Assembly: GCF_050320075.1 (NCBI RefSeq)
Contig: NZ_CP190018.1
DNA from: Escherichia coli
GTDB lineage: Bacteria; Pseudomonadota; Gammaproteobacteria; Enterobacterales; Enterobacteriaceae
Direction: 5' to 3' (one strand)
Length of the DNA: 64,000 nucleotides
Below the pieces are notes generated by a model. That model saw nothing but the letters and a program-made list of their open reading frames with translations, was not told the origin of the DNA and made no database searches. Position numbers and translations under genes: made by a program. This document shows, piece by piece, positions 27,071 to 62,812 of this stretch (position 1 is its first letter; the number at the start of each line of letters is the position of its first letter).

Positions 27071-28033
<963 letters not shown>

Positions 28034-53789: not shown

Positions 53790-53834
53790 AGGGCTTCTCC
53801 AAAACGTGTTTTTTGTTGTTAATTCGGTGTAGAC

Positions 53835-53869
53835 TCGTAAACCTAAATCTTTTCAATTTGGTTTACAAG
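53835..53869. promoter_or_regulatory. bio operator (BirA binding site) in the divergent bioA / bioBFCD control region
   Basis: Imperfect palindrome tcgtaaacctaaatcttttcaatttggtttacaag (gtaaacc ... ggtttac). Confidence 0.7.
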
Positions 53870-53875
53870 TCGATT

Positions 53876-55165
53876 ATGACAACGGACGATCTTGCCTTTG
53901 ACCAACGCCATATCTGGCACCCATACACATCCATGACCTCCCCGCTACCGGTTTATCCAGTGGCGAGCGCCGAGGGTTGCGAGCTAATTTTGTCTGACGG
54001 CAGACGCCTTGTTGACGGTATGTCGTCCTGGTGGGCGGCGATCCACGGTTACAATCACCCGCAGCTTAATGCGGCGATGAAATCGCAAATTGATGCTATG
54101 TCGCATGTGATGTTTGGCGGTATCACCCATGCGCCCGCCATTGAGCTGTGCCGCAAATTGGTGGCAATGACGCCGCAACCGCTGGAGTGCGTTTTTCTCG
54201 CGGACTCCGGCTCCGTAGCGGTAGAAGTGGCGATGAAAATGGCGTTGCAGTACTGGCAGGCCAAAGGCGAAGCGCGCCAGCGTTTTCTGACCTTCCGCAA
54301 TGGTTATCATGGCGATACCTTTGGCGCGATGTCGGTGTGCGATCCGGACAACTCAATGCACAGCCTGTGGAAAGGCTATCTGCCAGAAAACTTGTTTGCT
54401 CCCGCCCCGCAAAGCCGCCTGGATGGTGAATGGGATGAACGCGATATGGTGGGCTTTGCCCGCCTGATGGCGGCGCATCGTCATGAAATCGCCGCAGTGA
54501 TCATTGAACCGATTGTCCAGGGCGCAGGCGGGATGCGCATCTACCATCCGGAATGGTTAAAACGAATCCGCAAAATGTGCGATCGCGAAGGTATCTTGCT
54601 GATTGCCGACGAGATCGCCACCGGATTTGGTCGTACCGGCAAACTGTTTGCCTGTGAACATGCAGAAATCGCGCCGGATATTTTGTGTCTCGGTAAAGCC
54701 TTAACCGGCGGCACAATGACCCTTTCCGCCACGCTCACCACGCGCGAGGTTGCGGAAACCATCAGTAACGGCGAAGCCGGCTGCTTTATGCATGGGCCAA
54801 CTTTTATGGGCAATCCGCTGGCCTGCGCAGCAGCAAACGCCAGCCTGGCGATTCTCGAATCTGGCGACTGGCAGCATCAGGTGGCGGCTATTGAAGGGCA
54901 GCTACGCGAGCAACTTGCCCCCGCCTGTGACGCCGAAATGGTTGCCGATGTGCGCGTACTGGGGGCAATCGGCGTGGTCGAAACCACTCGTCCGGTGAAT
55001 ATGGCAGCGCTGCAAAAATTCTTTGTCGAACAGGGTGTCTGGATCCGGCCTTTTGGCAAACTGATTTACCTGATGCCGCCCTATATTATTCTCCCGCAAC
55101 AGTTGCAGCGTCTGACCGCAGCGGTTAATCGTGCGGTGCAGGATGAAACATTTTTTTGCCAATAA
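53876..55165 (+). CDS. bioA: Adenosylmethionine-8-amino-7-oxononanoate aminotransferase BioA
   Basis: 429 aa from ATG 53876 ([20 protein letters not shown]). Confidence 0.95.
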
Positions 55166-55223: not shown

Positions 55224-55700
55224 ATGAAACTCATCAGTAATGATTTACGCGATGGCGATAAGCTGCCGCATCGTCATGTCTTTAACGGCATGGGTTACGA
55301 TGGCGATAATATTTCACCGCATCTGGCGTGGGATGATGTTCCTGTGGGAACGAAAAGTTTTGTTGTCACCTGCTACGACCCGGATGCGCCAACTGGCTCC
55401 GGCTGGTGGCACTGGGTAGTTGTTAATTTACCCGCGGATACCCGCGTATTACCGCAAGGGTTTGGCTCTGGTCTGGTAGCAATGCCAGACGGCGTTTTGC
55501 AGACGCGTACCGACTTTGGTAAAACCGGATACGATGGCGCAGCGCCGCCGAAAGGCGAAACCCATCGCTACATTTTTACCGTTCACGCGCTGGATGTAGA
55601 ACGTATTGATGTCGATGAAGGTGCCAGCGGCGCGATGGTCGGGTTTAACGTTCATTTTCACTCTCTGGCGAGAGCCTCGATTACTGCGATGTTTAGTTAA
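55224..55700 (+). CDS. ybhB: PEBP-family protein YbhB
   Basis: 158-aa translation; last chromosomal gene before the att site. Confidence 0.85.
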   Translation: MKLISNDLRDGDKLPHRHVFNGMGYDGDNISPHLAWDDVPVGTKSFVVTCYDPDAPTGSGWWHWVVVNLPADTRVLPQGFGSGLVAMPDGVLQTRTDFGKTGYDGAAPPKGETHRYIFTVHALDVERIDVDEGASGAMVGFNVHFHSLARASITAMFS

Positions 55701-55789
55701 TCACTCTGCCAGATGGCGCAATGCCATCTGGTATCACTTAAAGGTATTAAAAACAACTTTTTGTCTTTTTACCTTCCCGTTTCGCTCAA

Positions 55790-55804
55790 GTTAGTATAAA
55801 AAAG
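55790..55804. other. Lambda-type att core (attR junction): ttagtataaaaaagc
   Basis: Reverse complement of the 15-bp lambda core GCTTTTTTATACTAA, flanked on the ybhB side by bacterial-arm sequence cgctcaag. Confidence 0.85.
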
Positions 55805-55947
55805 CTGAACGAGAAACGTAAAATGATATAAATATCAATATATTAAATTAGATTTTGCATAAAAAACAGACTACATAATACTGTAAAACACAACATATGC
55901 AGTCACTATGAATCAACTACTTAGATGGTATTAGTGACCTGTAACAG
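55805..55947. promoter_or_regulatory. Lambda attP P-arm (Int arm-type, IHF, Xis, Fis site region)
   Basis: ~140 bp matching, as far as I can recall it, the reverse complement of the lambda P arm (...cgtaaaatgatataaatatcaatatattaaattagattttgcataaaaaacagactacataatactgtaaaacac...ctgtaacaga). Confidence 0.75.
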
Positions 55948-55950
55948 AGC

Positions 55951-55990
55951 ATTAGCGCAAGGTGATTTTTGTCTTCTTGCGCTAATTTTT
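55951..55990 (+). terminator. sib / tI-like intrinsic terminator distal to att
   Basis: ttagcgcaag ... cttgcgctaa hairpin followed by tttttt on + strand, in the position of lambda sib/tI. Confidence 0.6.
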
Positions 55991-56510
55991 TGTCATCAAA
56001 CCTGTCGCACTCCAGAGAAGCACAAAGCCTCGCAATCCAGTGCAAAGCTTTGTGTGCCACCCACTACGGCCCGCATAACCAGTAAGAAGATAGCAGTGAT
56101 GTCAAACGACGCAGCAGTCTTCTTTTCTTTCACACTTTCCCCCACCCAGCATACATACCTTTCTGCCACAGCTGAAATGAATGTCTATTATGAGCAAGGA
56201 GAGGAAATTCGTAATTGTCATCATCAATGGCGATTTGCTGGTACTATCTGTGTTAAGTAATAGGAAAACAAGTAACTGGAGAAAGATTTGATTTACACAC
56301 TATTATAGCAGTTAATAGTTTAAGCTATTGACACTTTAACTATTTTGCATAAAGTTAAACATAACAACCCCATAAATTGATAATGCAAGAGAGTACTGAA
56401 CTAAGTATTTTAGCTCTACCATATTGCCCAGGCAGTATAATATATGATACATTAAAAAATTAGATTTAATTTACTTAAACATCCTAATCACACTAAGAAT
56501 GAAGAAATAA

Positions 56511-57389
56511 ATGCTGTTTAAATATTGTCCTATTAATGAGTATTCAATTAAATCTCTAGTGGAAAACAAACTATATCTTAATCATCTCAACATGATGAAT
56601 GACAGTGCTGAAGGTTTTTGTAAGATAATAAGTGGTTTCCCAGATTATAATGAAAAAACTGAGAGATATGATTTGATAATAAAAACATGGTGTGGAGAGT
56701 CTGGCTGGCTACCTTCTGAATATGAATATAACGAATATATTGATTCAATGAGAGAACTGGAACCAAATGTCCCGCAATTGCTGGACTCTGCAAGGATATC
56801 ATGCTTTACGAATACGGCGTTAAACCCTACAATGTGGGCTCATTATGCTAACAACAGAACAGGTATATGTATAGAATTCGATCAAGACAAAATAAGAGAA
56901 CTAGAGGATATCTATATCTTTGACGTCAAATATAAAGATCGCCCTCCGACTATTGATACTGCAGTACTAACATTAATAGCTGATCAGGTGAACTATAATC
57001 ATGATGCAATTTATGATGATTATCAAGAAAAGTTCAAACATCTTTATGAACAAGCATTTGACGAGGGAAGAAATTTGCTTTTGGAAATTTACAATGGAAT
57101 ATTGGCAACTAAATCTCAAGAATGGTCTTATGAACAAGAAAAACGGCTAATATATATTTTATCCTTCTCACAAGAAGACAAATTGGCAAAAAAATATAAA
57201 ACTGGCATAAACATATCACTCCCTGAAGGATGCATTAAAAGTGTTATCCTAGGTGAGAAGACAAGTGAGCATGATAAAAAACTTATAGTTTCAGCTATAA
57301 AAAAACATTCTAAACACATTAAGTTGAAGAGAGCTACAATAACACAAGGCGAATATTTATTATCTATTCGTGATGAAGTTTTTAGCTGA
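56511..57389 (+). CDS. DUF2971-like protein of unknown function (prophage cargo)
   Basis: 292 aa; N-terminal MLFKY...L.ENKLYL...NDSAEG and central SCFTNTALNPTMWAHYANNRTGICIEF match what I recall as DUF2971 hallmarks; visibly AT-rich by eye. Confidence 0.6.
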   Translation: MLFKYCPINEYSIKSLVENKLYLNHLNMMNDSAEGFCKIISGFPDYNEKTERYDLIIKTWCGESGWLPSEYEYNEYIDSMRELEPNVPQLLDSARISCFTNTALNPTMWAHYANNRTGICIEFDQDKIRELEDIYIFDVKYKDRPPTIDTAVLTLIADQVNYNHDAIYDDYQEKFKHLYEQAFDEGRNLLLEIYNGILATKSQEWSYEQEKRLIYILSFSQEDKLAKKYKTGINISLPEGCIKSVILGEKTSEHDKKLIVSAIKKHSKHIKLKRATITQGEYLLSIRDEVFS

Positions 57390-57451
57390 TGGTATTATAA
57401 TCGAACAGATATTTTCTCCTAAGCGTTGCATTTATCCCACGGTAACATATT

Positions 57452-57490
57452 CATACTCAAATATCCTGCGACATGGAAGATTTGAGTATG
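57452..57490 (+). terminator. Hairpin (11-bp stem, 17-nt loop) downstream of the DUF2971-like ORF
   Basis: catactcaaat ... atttgagtatg inverted repeat 63 bp after stop; weak T tract follows. Confidence 0.4.
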
Positions 57491-57678
57491 GTTGTTCTTC
57501 ATGAGCGAAAAGCAGATGTTCGCGCTAAGGTATAATCAATTGGTTGTTAAATAGTTTAAACACAAGCAATGACTAATAAAACAATGCCACAAACCTTATT
57601 ATTTCTAAACTAGCATTTAGCTTTCAGACAATTTATTGATTGTTAATACATATTTTTAATATTTAATTATCATTTATT

Positions 57679-57689
57679 CCCCCCCCCCC
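57679..57689. repeat. Homopolymeric C11 tract
   Basis: 11 consecutive C at 57679-57689; a second C6 run at 57776-57781. Confidence 0.9.
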
Positions 57690-57882
57690 TCATGCTTATC
57701 AAATACTTCACAACAACGGAATTTTAATCCACATTTGTTATCTGTCTCTATCAGATTCATCCATACCCCCCTCCATTATTATTTAATTTCCAGATAAAAA
57801 TCTTCATCCTGTTATACATATAAAAAAGTGCAATATTTAAATAATGATAACAAATTATTGATTTTGCTCACATAAATTTTAT

Positions 57883-57911
57883 TGACAAGATGATAAGCTG
57901 ATATCTACACA
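57883..57911 (+). promoter_or_regulatory. Candidate sigma70 promoter for the zinc-ribbon ORF
   Basis: TTGACA at 57883-57888, 17-bp spacer, weak -10 tacaca; SD aagagg 5 nt before ATG 57935. Confidence 0.4.
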
Positions 57912-57934
57912 TTGTATTTTCTCAAGAGGAATTT

Positions 57935-58348
57935 ATGGCTGACATTGTCACTGGTTTGACCGCACTCAAAACCGCCTTTGATTTAGCAAAAGATATAAAA
58001 AATGCCACTGGCGCATACAATGATGCAGAAATGAGGCTTAAGTTTAGTGAGCTTTATAGCGCGCTATCTGAAGCCAAAATAGAACTGGCTGATACACAGC
58101 TAGAAATGTATGAACTAAAGCTGAAGATCGAAGAGTTGCAAGCTAAGCTTGATGCATCGGACGAGCTTGAATATAGGGAAAACGTATACTGGAGGGCCTC
58201 ACCTATCAATGGCAAACCAAACGGTCCTTTTTGCCCAAGATGTTATGAAAGTTCAGAGAAGAAGCTATCTTCAATGAGTCAAGTAACGGGGCATGCAACT
58301 ATTGCTGGAAAATACAAATGTAATACTTGTAACGCCTACGTTAGATAA
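57935..58348 (+). CDS. Small coiled-coil protein with C-terminal CxxC...CxxC zinc ribbon (prophage cargo)
   Basis: 137 aa; heptad-like LKFSELYSALSEAKIELADTQLEMYELKLKIEELQAKL; CPRCY ... CNTCNAY; good SD. Confidence 0.6.
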   Translation: MADIVTGLTALKTAFDLAKDIKNATGAYNDAEMRLKFSELYSALSEAKIELADTQLEMYELKLKIEELQAKLDASDELEYRENVYWRASPINGKPNGPFCPRCYESSEKKLSSMSQVTGHATIAGKYKCNTCNAYVR

Positions 58349-58684
58349 AAAGCCGTTATGGGGCTGGGACGGAGGCTCAAATCCTCTCGTGCAAAAATTC
58401 AGCTAAAACTTTTGTTCAGGAGACTCTGAAAGATACCAAGAAGTCTGCTGACGAGTGGTTTATTTACTAATTAGCACGTAAAATCTATTATGGCTGGAAA
58501 TCATTCAATACTCGTACTATCGAAAGTTCGCCAGCCGACAGCAAAACGCTATTGCATGGCAGGGATTGCAGGCCTCTCGATATTCGGTGCTAAGGATGTA
58601 TCAACACGGTTCAGCAGAACCCGATGCGTCTTCAAAACCGCAGCAACGATATCTCTTCCTCCGTTCCATTTACAGCCACCTTTT

Positions 58685-58993
58685 TCACCCTCGATTAACC
58701 AACAACCAGACCAGAAGACACGCTACCACCGGCACAGCAAAATCCATCAGGCTTGCCATATCCCACGCGCGTGGGTCAAAACCGCCCCACCACGGCATAT
58801 TCATTCGCTTGCCATGCCCGAACATTTCGATCCAGCGATATTCTGCCTGGGTGTGTTCACGCGCAATGAAGAACGTACAACCGGCTATCGCCCCGTAAGC
58901 CCAGTTCCCGGTAAAAAGACCAATCAGTAGCTGCGCAGCCACAGCACAAAGCGCATGAAGGAAAGGTGTTATATCCATTTTCATCCCACCCAA
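58685..58993 (-). CDS. Small predicted membrane protein (prophage, unknown function)
   Basis: 102 aa with two hydrophobic segments; several alternative Met starts; lies just downstream of the tail-fibre genes. Confidence 0.5.
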   Translation of the reverse strand: MGGMKMDITPFLHALCAVAAQLLIGLFTGNWAYGAIAGCTFFIAREHTQAEYRWIEMFGHGKRMNMPWWGGFDPRAWDMASLMDFAVPVVACLLVWLLVNRG

Positions 58994-59020: not shown

Positions 59021-60061
59021 TTATTTAGACGCAAGCGCCGCATCAATTGCAGATAATCTTTGTCTTAATTCTGCGTTTTCTTCTTCCAGTGCTGTTATTC
59101 TGTCGTCTGACTCTCTGGCTACCTGAACAAGCAAGCCAGTAACACCAGAATAATCTACTGTGTAATAACGTTCACCTTCTTCACCTTCCGATCCGCTCGC
59201 ACCGTCCTGATATTTCATTACGGAACCTACAACTTCTGGGATTGCTTCCAGAGCTTCCTGTGCAATGACACCAGCATAGGGCATACCGTTTTCTTTAAGC
59301 GTGTATGTATAGCCGTTCATTTTACGGATGCGGTCGGTTGCATTATCGATCACCTGAATGTTGTCTTTCAGATCCCGGTCGGAATGCTGGTTAAATGCGG
59401 TGGCATGACATGCACCATTAACGCTTAACATATAGGTGTTATCGGTATTTTTCTGCGCATAGAACATATAAGCGCCACCATCAACACCGACTTCATAAAC
59501 AACAGGACGGCTGGAGTTGCCCCACAATTGAGCAGTAACACCAGCATAAGCGGTTCCCTGTGTGTTTAATGTCATGGTTGACCCATGATTGGCATATTTG
59601 ATCTGTAATGTGTCGGTGTAATCAAATTTAATAAGCGCGTTACTTCCACGCTTGCTGTATGACATAAGGCAGTTACCCATTTTGAGGTATCCGCTGTCAC
59701 CGGGAAAAATCATCGTACCGCCATAAAGGTTGGTAAAGTCCCAGCAAATGTTTGTCCCGTTATCGTTCAGGTTAAGGCGCGCCATTGCGTTACCTGGACT
59801 GTCTATCCATTTTTTGAGGTATAGTTCGCAATATGCATCCTCAACACCTGCCGTCCTGTGAGTTGAGCGGAGTTTTCTCCCAAATATAGCTCCGCTAGTT
59901 GGCAATACCTGCTGATACCATGAAGCAGACCAGTCACCAACGGTTTCATCTTTGCTGTCTACATATGATTTTGTTGCGTAGCTTCCTTGATCGTTTTTTA
60001 ATTTGCTAACGTCGGATTTTAGCGTTTTGATGTCATCAGGAATTACTGTCGATGTAGCCAT
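59021..60061 (-). CDS. Tail fibre / spike-like protein with C-terminal intramolecular chaperone (peptidase S74-like) domain
   Basis: 346 aa; C-terminal SDRDLKDNIQVIDNATDRIRKMNGYTYTLKENGMPYAGVIAQEALEAIPEVV plus terminal coiled coil (ITALEEENAELRQRLSAIDAAL). Confidence 0.65.
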   Translation of the reverse strand: MATSTVIPDDIKTLKSDVSKLKNDQGSYATKSYVDSKDETVGDWSASWYQQVLPTSGAIFGRKLRSTHRTAGVEDAYCELYLKKWIDSPGNAMARLNLNDNGTNICWDFTNLYGGTMIFPGDSGYLKMGNCLMSYSKRGSNALIKFDYTDTLQIKYANHGSTMTLNTQGTAYAGVTAQLWGNSSRPVVYEVGVDGGAYMFYAQKNTDNTYMLSVNGACHATAFNQHSDRDLKDNIQVIDNATDRIRKMNGYTYTLKENGMPYAGVIAQEALEAIPEVVGSVMKYQDGASGSEGEEGERYYTVDYSGVTGLLVQVARESDDRITALEEENAELRQRLSAIDAALASK

Positions 60062-60070
60062 TTTTCTTCC

Positions 60071-60352
60071 TCACATCCAGCCACGAAGTTGATGCTCAAC
60101 AGCAACCACGTATTCATCGAATATTGACGGTGTTTTCACATCATTAATGATGCGCACGTTTACAAAATATCCGTCTTCCTTAACACATACCGGTTCGCCA
60201 TCTTCATTCAGTTCTCCGGTTTCTTTGTACACGTTACCTATCACGTCAATAAGAATATCATCCTGCATCGACTCATCATCATAATAGCCAGTGCTATCCA
60301 TAAAGGCCGAAAAATCGGCCCTGTCGGCAAATTTAAGTGTTAAATCTTTCAT
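60071..60352 (-). CDS. Small acidic protein translationally coupled to stf (possible fibre assembly/accessory protein)
   Basis: 93 aa; ATG overlaps stf stop (ATGA); no family recognised. Confidence 0.5.
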   Translation of the reverse strand: MKDLTLKFADRADFSAFMDSTGYYDDESMQDDILIDVIGNVYKETGELNEDGEPVCVKEDGYFVNVRIINDVKTPSIFDEYVVAVEHQLRGWM

Positions 60353-62748
60353 TTAATACTCTCCCCCATTTGCGCATCAGTTAATTCTTTATGCCAGAGA
60401 CGAAGATTTCTCAAATGGCCGAATAGATGACGTGTCCCTGATGTGGCTTGACCTCCTATTCTAATAAAGGTCCGCGTTTTTACGCCCGTCCATTCCGTTT
60501 CAATGGTTTTAGTAGCCTCACCGTTAGAAACTACTCGTTTAGTACCGTCAGAATAAATATTAAAACCACCAATGAATTTTCGAACATCCGTTCGACCAGT
60601 AAACAAACTAGAAACGTAACTACTTGTCGACGCTTTATAAGTTTGCATATAAAGCTGACCGTAATATCTCTCGGTTGTGTTAAAAGCGTATGTGATTGAC
60701 TCAATAGGCGGCACACCAGAAAAATCAAAAATACGCGGTGCTACATTAGGGGGAATATCGCCCCAATTCCTGTTAACCTCGACCAAACAAGTAAGCGGTC
60801 TGTTATAAATGTTGTTTTCGGTCGGGATCGTAACCATATCACTCGCACGAGTCGCCGCCGTCGCTCCTGATATAATAAAAGATGATACACAAGGCCCATC
60901 TTCTACTTGTGGGGTGGCCAGATAAATATAGTCACCAGATACGGTTGCCCCGCTCTGCTTAGGAGAATACTGTATCTGAGAGCCTATTTTTAACTCCCCA
61001 TCAATTGCCTGAATTGTTGCCTCTGCAAAAATCCATCCGGTAGCTTCGTCCTTTCTGACTCTCGCTGTAATCCTTGAGGCAGCACCGCCTGTCATATTAA
61101 TTTCAAGCGTTTGTGTATCAATATACGCATCACCAAGAAAAGTTGTTGCGCTACCGTCATATTTATCAAACCGGATACGCAACCTTACCTGCAGTTCTGT
61201 TTTAAAACGACATGAGGTTGTCACGTATTTATTATCGCCTGAGACATCAACTGACTTTGTTGCAGCAATTGATGCCATATTAATGGCTGAGGTTTGCCCA
61301 ATCAGAGAATCGTTACAGACAAACTTTCCATAGGTAAAACCAAAACTATCCGTCCCGGTTTCGGGAACATCCATATTTGACGATCGCCCCCAACTGGCAG
61401 GGCTTTCCGAATTGAGCATGTAGTTCGCTCTTTGCCCCTCAATAAGCAGGCCATCACGTTCAAATCGTGGCTCGTCAATGGCAGCCTCTGTCAGCACACC
61501 AGATTTATTAATATAGGTTGCTTTCGATGCGCGTTTAAACTTTACAACCTTATCGCCAGGCATCGTTATTTCATCATCACCAATAACAATCTTTTTATAT
61601 GACGGCGAAAACCCCGTAATCATATCCAGTGAATCGTTAAACGGTATCCACACATCAGGCAACGGCTGCAAAACTTGTTTATACGGCTCCGCTGCCTGGC
61701 TTGCATACTCTCTGGCTGCGTCTTCACTTGCTTTAGCTGCTGTCTGGCTTGCTGCCGATGCTTGCGCCGAGTTCGCCGCTGTAGTCTCGCTCGCCTTTGC
61801 GTTGTCTTCACTGGTTTTTGCAGCTCTTTGACTGTTGGCTGATGCCGTGGCAGAAGCAGCCGCCGCGCTTGCAGAACCAGCTGCGGCACTCTCGCTTTGG
61901 GCCGCTGCATCCTGACTGTTTTTCGCCGCAGTTTCGCTGGCTTTGGCATTCGTTTCGCTGGTCTTCGCTGCAGTCTCGCTTGTCTTTGCGTTGGTTTCAC
62001 TGGTTTTTGCAGCTCTTTGACTGTTGGCTGATGCCGTGGCAGAAGTAGCCGCCGCACTTGCAGAACTGGCTGCCGCTCTCTCGCTTTGGGCTGCTGCATC
62101 CTGACTGTTTTTTGCTGCGGTAGCGGAGTTTGCTGCGGCACTCTGACTCGATTCTGCAGCCACCTCGCTATTTTTCGCATTAGTTTCGCTGGTCTTTGAA
62201 GCTGTCTCACTCGCTTTTGAGTTGTTTTCTGATTTTTTGGCTGCAGTCGCGGAGTTTGCCGATGCAGTCTGTGAGGCCGCTGCCGCCTGTGCGCTGTTAG
62301 CTGCATTCGTTTCTGAGGTTTTCGCCGCGTTCTTCGATGATGCCGCTGCAGTTTCGGATGTCTTTGCCGCCGCTGCGCTCTGAGAGGCGGCTTCAGCGTT
62401 GCGTGCCGCTTCTTCCACCATTTCCTGAAAACGGCGCAATGCCTCCGGCATGACATCATCTTCCGTCATGGCACCGAGAAAATCATTCAGCGTCCCCGGA
62501 CTGGAACCTTCATAGACGGTAATGGTCCCGGCATGTGAAGGCGGAAAACCTTCAACCAGCAGGATGACGCTGTACTGGCCATACTCAACGTCCATACTGT
62601 AACGCCCGGCTTCATCAGGATTTTCAGAGGCCACCGTGTTCACCAGTACCGTGGTGCTGTTACGCTTTGCCTTCAGTTGAATAGTGCAGTTCTGTATTGG
62701 TTTTCCCGCACCATCTTTCAGCACACCTGAGATTTTTACTGCTGCCAT
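60349..62748 (-). CDS. stf: Side tail fibre protein Stf-like (lambda Stf N-terminus, Ala/Ser/Thr-rich repeat shaft, LamG-like distal domain)
   Basis: N-terminus MAAVKISGVLKDGAGKPIQNCTIQLKAKRNSTTV... matches lambda Stf as I recall it; C-terminus ...FGHLRNLRLWHKELTDAQ resembles LamG-domain ends; ATG at 62748. Confidence 0.8.
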   Translation of the reverse strand: MAAVKISGVLKDGAGKPIQNCTIQLKAKRNSTTVLVNTVASENPDEAGRYSMDVEYGQYSVILLVEGFPPSHAGTITVYEGSSPGTLNDFLGAMTEDDVMPEALRRFQEMVEEAARNAEAASQSAAAAKTSETAAASSKNAAKTSETNAANSAQAAAASQTASANSATAAKKSENNSKASETASKTSETNAKNSEVAAESSQSAAANSATAAKNSQDAAAQSERAAASSASAAATSATASANSQRAAKTSETNAKTSETAAKTSETNAKASETAAKNSQDAAAQSESAAAGSASAAAASATASANSQRAAKTSEDNAKASETTAANSAQASAASQTAAKASEDAAREYASQAAEPYKQVLQPLPDVWIPFNDSLDMITGFSPSYKKIVIGDDEITMPGDKVVKFKRASKATYINKSGVLTEAAIDEPRFERDGLLIEGQRANYMLNSESPASWGRSSNMDVPETGTDSFGFTYGKFVCNDSLIGQTSAINMASIAATKSVDVSGDNKYVTTSCRFKTELQVRLRIRFDKYDGSATTFLGDAYIDTQTLEINMTGGAASRITARVRKDEATGWIFAEATIQAIDGELKIGSQIQYSPKQSGATVSGDYIYLATPQVEDGPCVSSFIISGATAATRASDMVTIPTENNIYNRPLTCLVEVNRNWGDIPPNVAPRIFDFSGVPPIESITYAFNTTERYYGQLYMQTYKASTSSYVSSLFTGRTDVRKFIGGFNIYSDGTKRVVSNGEATKTIETEWTGVKTRTFIRIGGQATSGTRHLFGHLRNLRLWHKELTDAQMGESIK
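61809..62122. repeat. Tandem direct repeat (period 189 bp) inside stf
   Basis: cactggtttttgcagctctttgactgttggctgatgccgtggcagaag... occurs at 61809 and again at 61998. Confidence 0.8.
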
Positions 62749-62812
62749 ATCCACTCCACAAAAAAGCCCGCCTGAACCGGCGGGCTGTCATAACACTGTG
62801 TTACCTGGCTAA

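Follow-up and report, generated by a model that had tools for sequence, protein, structure and literature searches.

Prophage setting and limits of the gap

The window is a stretch of 64,000 nt from an Escherichia coli contig (NZ_CP190018.1). It carried the E. coli genes bioA (53813–55165) and ybhB (55224–55700), followed at 55791–55805 by the lambda att core GCTTTTTTATACTAA on the minus strand, an exact match that occurred as a single copy in the window and marked the prophage end beside ybhB and bioA. The core with its P-arm flank (55787–56209) was 95.8% identical to positions 27319–27742 of lambda, the 404 bp of flank after the core having the same identity of 95.8%, indicating a lambdoid prophage at the lambda attB. 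Tail-fibre genes were located on the minus strand at 59021–60061, 60071–60352 and 60349–62754. The last of these encodes a tail-fibre N-terminal domain with long Ala/Ser/Thr-rich repeats (AAKTSETNA... units), and such repeats (including 61620–62459, minus strand) gave rise to long spurious out-of-frame or antisense ORFs in the ORF list.

A lineage-specific cargo of low GC content (0.26–0.36) occupied positions 56210–57923 on the plus strand. This cargo was present in 45 of 5426 complete E. coli genomes and was carried by no phage record. It included a DUF2971 gene (56511–57389, plus strand) encoding a protein of 292 aa, which matched Pfam DUF2971 (E 1e-12), PDC-S31 (E 1e-37), a candidate anti-phage defence family of PADLOC, and phrog_1762. 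The 545 bp that separate it from the next gene (57390–57934) were AT-rich, with a GC content of ~0.3, and non-coding, and contained imperfect 33-nt direct repeats at 57628–57660 and 57850–57882. The next gene (57935–58348, plus strand) encodes a 137-aa protein with a coiled coil and a zinc ribbon, assigned by PHROG match to phrog_1244, a family with no known function. Homologues of 52–86% identity were found in prophages of Citrobacter, Klebsiella, Kosakonia, Pantoea and others; in a Kosakonia prophage, a distant DUF2971 gene (25% identity) lay near the 137-aa gene.

The gap under study (58349–58684) measured 336 bp, from the TAA stop codon of the 137-aa gene (58346–58348) to the TGA stop codon (58685–58687) of a 97-aa membrane ORF on the minus strand (58685–58978), a PGAP CDS that matched phrog_1443 (E 1e-58). 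Both stop positions agree with an earlier note, made from the sequence alone, that had described a 336-bp gap between a convergent cargo gene and a membrane ORF. The gap is within the lambda ‘b region’ of the prophage, i.e., the tail-fibre-proximal accessory region on the att-site side, and the membrane ORF and the S74 tail fibre at 59021–60061 are both part of the tail-fibre module. The same note had seen no credible ORF in the gap, which was essentially right: the plus-strand ORFs at 58490–58930 and 58566–58898 are antisense to the membrane gene, and a 28-codon minus-strand ORF (58549–58635), called by PGAP as a ‘tail fiber assembly protein’ CDS, is a remnant.

Searches of the gap revealed no terminator-like sites, no promoter excess, and no tRNA or Rfam family at threshold, and folding differed modestly from that of shuffles, with z-scores of -2.5 and -2.8 for the two strands. 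Sequence identical to the window occurred in 45 of 5426 complete E. coli genomes, and the RefSeq annotation of this identical sequence includes a DinI pseudogene, the tfa mini-ORF and the membrane ORF. The gap is very probably non-coding debris at a mosaic junction, composed of the ordinary recombination leftovers of a lambdoid prophage, and its pieces appear to be nonfunctional at present.

Gene remnants in the gap

The leftmost piece, beginning 4 nt past the stop codon of the 137-aa gene, was a tRNA-Pro 3' block (58353–58392, plus strand), in which 40 nt correspond to positions 28–71 of E. coli proL. Positions 1–27 and 72–77 (CGACCA) were missing, the downstream arm was lost, and there were seven further differences. 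The local alignment with proL had a score of 26, compared to a maximum of 14 for shuffles, with none of 2000 shuffles reaching the score, and BLAST matched the block to the annotated tRNA-Pro gene in about 5400 genomes. Similarity to a tRNA-Pro gene was thus found without the complete cloverleaf and 3' acceptor strand; ARAGORN detected no tRNA gene in the gap, and Rfam gave no tRNA match there at E up to 10. A live tRNA gene was rejected, as ARAGORN and Rfam found none in the window or in 11 related loci. BLAST with the short block as query hit ~640 places in E. coli genomes besides the one true proL per genome.

Identity blocks from the 3' end of tRNA genes are part of attP sites in temperate phages and islands. 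In phage Eeyore, an integrase is followed by a tRNA-Pro block of the same kind, which identifies the block as an attP-type element. In the window it ended at position 71 and was fused to dinI, and there was no integrase in the cargo or the gap. The block appears to be a fossil, with no working att site. A literature search found nothing specific to a truncated tRNA-Pro fossil; the fossil, unannotated, is a small addition of a well-known kind.

Position 71 of the tRNA is joined to dinI at 58392/58393, and the 26-mer across this joint is CTCTCGTGCAAAAATTCAGCTAAAAC. From there to 58470, on the plus strand, the sequence consisted of the last 25 codons (58–82) and the TAA stop codon of an 82-codon DinI-family gene, the promoter, two LexA boxes, the start codon and the rest of the first 57 codons being absent. 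The earlier note had reported a frame ending in a stop codon without a start, and had taken it for the C-terminal tail of a displaced gene. Such a frame was present at 58393–58470, with no ATG, GTG or TTG after the last upstream in-frame stop codon and no listed ORF, and its match to DinI is far beyond chance. RefSeq/PGAP has annotated the same interval in strain 144 as a pseudogene, ‘DinI-like family protein, incomplete, missing N-terminus’.

At the DNA level, the remnant and the 3' ends of intact lambdoid-phage dinI genes were 87–94% identical. Positions 58393–58557 aligned with the 3' end and spacer of phi330 dinI at 87.3% identity over 165 nt (pairwise E 2e-54), and the intact 82-codon dinI genes of PhiR49_2, mEp460 and phi330 aligned base for base from 58393 through the stop codon into the downstream spacer. 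The region upstream of PhiR49_2 dinI was considered as the ancestral arrangement and rejected, its flank being unrelated to the lambda flank. The Pfam DinI profile (PF06183) matched the remnant weakly, at positions 44–63 of 63 with E 0.11 for 25 aa. Homology to the DinI family was accompanied neither by a complete ORF of ~80 codons nor by a LexA-box promoter: two perfect LexA boxes (CTGT-N8-ACAG) occur upstream of the intact PhiR49_2 dinI, and none with at most one mismatch was found between 56264 and 61915 of the window. Compared to the closest gene, that of phi330, 5 of 78 nt differed and all four changed codons were nonsynonymous, including a change from Trp to Lys; among the intact dinI genes, the ratios of synonymous to nonsynonymous codons were 8:0, 6:4 and 9:4. 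Such a run of nonsynonymous substitutions is as would be expected without selection. As read from its sequence, the remnant is a dead 3' end from which the RecA-binding DinI protein could not be made.

The post-dinI spacer (58471–58557) was delimited by alignments to PhiR49_2, phi330, strain 582, 13TMH22 and 2G7b, and keeps a degenerate 5' arm (about 58536–58548) of the dinI/tfa hairpin. Between 58557 and 58558, a 38-bp deletion relative to these relatives has removed the 3' arm of the 10-bp dinI–tfa hairpin along with the final codons of tfa. A spacer derived from the trailer and terminator of the tRNA itself would have fixed the sequence of events, but local alignments scored no better than shuffles, and this idea was dropped.

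On the minus strand, ~40 C-terminal codons of tfa (58549–58676) were split by a 1-nt frameshift near 58635–58638. They read AVNGTEEEISLLRF / LKTHRVLLNRVDTSLAPNIERPAIPAMQ-stop, the stop codon now coming from the far side of the 38-bp deletion. The frameshift-corrected peptide matched Pfam PF02413 (Caudo_TAP) with E 8.3e-9 and 36.1 bits (cut-off 22.1) over positions 96–130 of 131, and by BLASTP was 44% identical to the C-terminus of Gifsy-2 Tfa (E 9e-7). Homology to Caudo_TAP was found in two frames, with no full-length ORF and with at least ~100 N-terminal residues absent. A match of Rfam model IS009 at 58592–58704 (minus strand; 41.6 bits, E 2e-8) was far below the gathering score of 117 and lacked ~86 model positions. 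The same model scored 97 bits inside the tfa coding sequence of Gifsy-2 (locus L011, 4566–4764), suggesting that IS009 matches in prophage regions are largely tfa coding homology, and an IS009-type small RNA was rejected.

The membrane ORF and the tfa remnant occurred together in ~2500 E. coli genomes and several phages. The remnant was better preserved behind the membrane ORF in PhiR49_2, 2G7b and these ~2500 genomes, making it an older scar, left by the exchange through which the S74 tail-fibre module was brought in. The tfa tail would have been left over when a self-chaperoning S74 module with the small membrane ORF replaced an stf/tfa module. The tRNA-Pro fossil, the tfa remnant and the 38-bp deletion had all been missed in the earlier note.

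The tRNA-Pro block in relatives and other prophages

Nine loci encoding homologues of the 137-aa protein were read, seven with at least 62% protein identity (from Citrobacter, Pantoea, Kosakonia and unassigned contigs) and two with 52%. All seven of the former had an intact tRNA-Pro 3' block, through CCA, 3–9 nt behind the gene; the two 52%-identical loci (L037 and L038), in a P2-like context, had none. After the block, the relatives had a hairpin-plus-T-run terminator, repeated short motifs, and SRAP or umuDC/S24 genes, and in most of the seven loci the order ended with dinI and tail-fibre genes. The repeated motifs look like integrase arm-type sites, judging by their resemblance. Across Enterobacterales prophages, the 137-aa family was tightly linked to the tRNA-Pro 3' block (loci L029 and L031–L036), and in Kosakonia the last codons of the gene overlapped a recognisable but degenerate 5' half of the tRNA. 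DNA homology between the window and the 137-aa loci of other species was limited to 57924–58392, ending exactly at tRNA position 71, and even with blastn sensitivity the module was found nowhere else in E. coli. The 137-aa gene and the tRNA-Pro block behind it appear, by their shared occurrence, to be a native module.

Compared with these relatives, the window is without everything from tRNA position 72 to about codon 57 of dinI. The DinI subtypes differed, with MFVEL... in relatives carrying the 137-aa module and MRIEI... for the remnant in the window, and a tblastn search of 50,697 phage records found no phage in which a dinI of the window's subtype lies behind the 137-aa gene. As no sampled phage pairs the 137-aa module with a MRIEI... 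dinI, a simple internal deletion is not directly demonstrated. A metagenome contig of 2.6x coverage (L042, 965–1913) carried the same 137-aa gene, tRNA fossil and dinI remnant, departing from the window left of 57716, where its sequence had no convincing ORF. The contig may be chimeric, or may have another cargo on its left.

Blocks cut at position 71 and followed by an A-run also adjoined sitABCD in strain 13TMH22 (L007) and McrBC-like genes in SC516 (L009), and occurred in phage PhiR11_1 (L010) and 15 viral contigs. In all of these, the truncated block was joined straight to the post-dinI spacer, an arrangement equal to the window minus 78 nt. These directly joined blocks all read CTCATGC, whereas the window and real tRNA-Pro genes read CTCGTGC; in the viral contigs, 15 of 15 blocks lacked the 137-aa gene and had A in place of the G of the window. 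The cargo slot of several prophage lineages that have diverged from one another (L007, L009, L010 and L014–L028) is bounded on its right by this near-full-length pseudo-tRNA-Pro cut at 71, a truncated fossil that marks the edge.

The point at which homology to the window begins also differed among prophages: 58393 in dinI-bearing phages, 58476 in the prophage with sitABCD cargo (13TMH22), 58493 in a lambda-att prophage without cargo (strain 582) and 58557 in phage 2G7b, which has methyltransferase cargo. With joints differing among prophages within a few hundred bp, the gap region is a junction hot spot. The prophage of E. coli strain 582 (L008, 3993–4493) is related, uses the same lambda attB and has no cargo; its lambda flank (to the window equivalent of 56058) joins the post-dinI spacer within 48 bp, and a 49-aa ‘nucleocapsid protein’ ORF called by PGAP at this junction is probably spurious.

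Origin of the tRNA::dinI joint

The exact tRNA::dinI joint was found only with the DUF2971/137-aa cargo, in 45 E. coli genomes and four metagenome contigs (at least 99.9% identity), and was absent from 100,044 species-representative genomes; the metagenome matches were to the same prophage. From left to right, the proposed order is a decayed tRNA-Pro block belonging to the 137-aa module, a dinI tail fused to that block, the spacer minus 38 bp and, on the opposite strand, the frameshifted tfa tail. We infer that one deletion, or an illegitimate crossover at microhomology, for which AAA(A/G)AT is a candidate, fused tRNA position 71 to dinI.

The earlier note had suggested that the gene tail may mark the recombination joint through which the cargo module came in. 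There is a joint at 58392/58393, but its left partner, the tRNA-Pro block, is natively linked to the 137-aa gene elsewhere, and the same position-71 block with its A-run lies beside unrelated cargos in many E. coli prophages. The latter observation implies that the dinI breakpoint may predate the DUF2971 cargo; alternatively, the breakpoint may have arisen by recombination between a phage with the fossil and one with dinI. The confinement of the joint to one cargo and 45 genomes fits a recent event, and the shared truncation at position 71 fits an old one. A link between the dinI joint and the acquisition of the DUF2971 cargo is plausible.

In its specific form, this reading takes the joint as the very crossover that delivered the cargo, out of register, into a resident dinI-bearing phage. 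The donor would have had the DUF2971 gene, the 137-aa gene and the truncated block, the 5' two-thirds of dinI would have been destroyed, and a short homeologous patch (AAAAAATACGTAAAATC vs. TAAAGATTCAGCTAAAAC) would have been used. We give this somewhat less than an even chance. Its distribution speaks for it, the joint being seen with the DUF2971 cargo only (45 of 5426 genomes and four contigs, and none of the 100,044 species representatives), the 137-aa module being otherwise absent from E. coli, and the sequence right of the joint being typical of E. coli prophages; the similarity patch at the joint is also visible in alignments. On the other hand, it presupposes a donor, so far unsampled, in which the 137-aa gene was intact and the block already cut at 71, while all 15 viral-contig blocks are without that gene and read CTCATGC instead of CTCGTGC. 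Moreover, as the widespread arrangement equals the window minus 78 nt, a single deletion from a window-like ancestor is equally possible, and the CTCGTGC of the window together with this arrangement of the widespread copies fits such an ancestor.

A broader proposal, which we consider rather unlikely, is that the truncated tRNA-Pro block serves as a conserved homology patch, or docking point, for cargo swaps at the right edge of the slot. If so, lambdoid prophages of E. coli and other Enterobacterales would swap sitABCD, McrBC-like genes and DUF2971/PDC-S31 there, and the dinI remnant would be the record of one out-of-register exchange at the patch.

It is very unlikely that the block is the att repeat of an integrase-delivered island, with the cargo inserted site-specifically at a tRNA-Pro-like site in the phage. 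The block is a typical 3' identity segment of a tRNA-targeting attP, the Eeyore integrase adjoins the same block, and motifs resembling arm-type sites lie downstream of it in relatives. However, the 64-kb window held no second copy of the block with up to three mismatches, no direct repeats flanked the cargo, the cargo has no integrase, and the prophage itself integrates through the lambda core; on the left side of the cargo, lambda homology breaks off abruptly at 56209/56210. Least probable of all is a functional gap, acting through the 28-codon tfa ORF, a DinI C-terminal peptide or an IS009-type small RNA: the PGAP call for the 28-aa ORF, the IS009 match and folding somewhat better than shuffles on both strands are outweighed by an IS009 score of 41.6 against the required 117 and the 97 bits in Gifsy-2 tfa, by an ORF whose TTG start was made by the frameshift and whose stop comes from across the 38-bp deletion, and by a dinI piece without a start codon in a gap with no promoter excess and no terminator.

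The reading of the gap as recombination debris makes it an example of how lambdoid accessory regions are built by repeated replacement, with truncated gene ends left behind. The debris is largely annotated already, and the finding is real but ordinary. Two points of annotation follow from it, namely the status of the 28-aa ‘tail fiber assembly protein’ CDS as a remnant and the presence of an unannotated tRNA-Pro fossil. Lying at the edge of a slot with defence and virulence genes, this fossil could help automatic cargo delimitation. With both native terminators lost, transcription of the cargo gene may continue into the tail-fibre module in the antisense direction.

Each piece can be compared with a known system. 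Like tRNA blocks of attP sites, the fossil comprises the tRNA-Pro from the anticodon arm toward the 3' end, in sense orientation and beside a phage accessory gene; unlike those of Eeyore and the relatives, it is cut at position 71 and lies in a prophage that integrates via the lambda core. The dinI remnant is colinear with the lambdoid DinI genes (mEp460 gp21, phi330, PhiR49_2 and the Gifsy dinI-gfoA operon), shares their downstream spacer, and is likewise near the prophage end, converging on tail-fibre genes. It differs from them in keeping 25 of 82 codons, without LexA boxes, promoter or start codon, and in the replacement of a conserved Trp by Lys. Similar to other lambda Tfa/Caudo_TAP remnants left after exchanged tail-fibre modules, the tfa piece keeps the C-terminal motif ...LLNRVDTS.AP..., although this copy is more decayed, with an extra 1-nt frameshift and loss of the last codons and stop. 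Finally, the cargo (moron) slot of the lambda b region holds DUF2971/PDC-S31 in the window, sitABCD in strain 13TMH22, McrBC-like genes in SC516, a methyltransferase in phage 2G7b and sseI in Gifsy-2. The window keeps this known pattern of the lambdoid cargo slot, and its single addition is the truncated tRNA-Pro fossil at the right edge.
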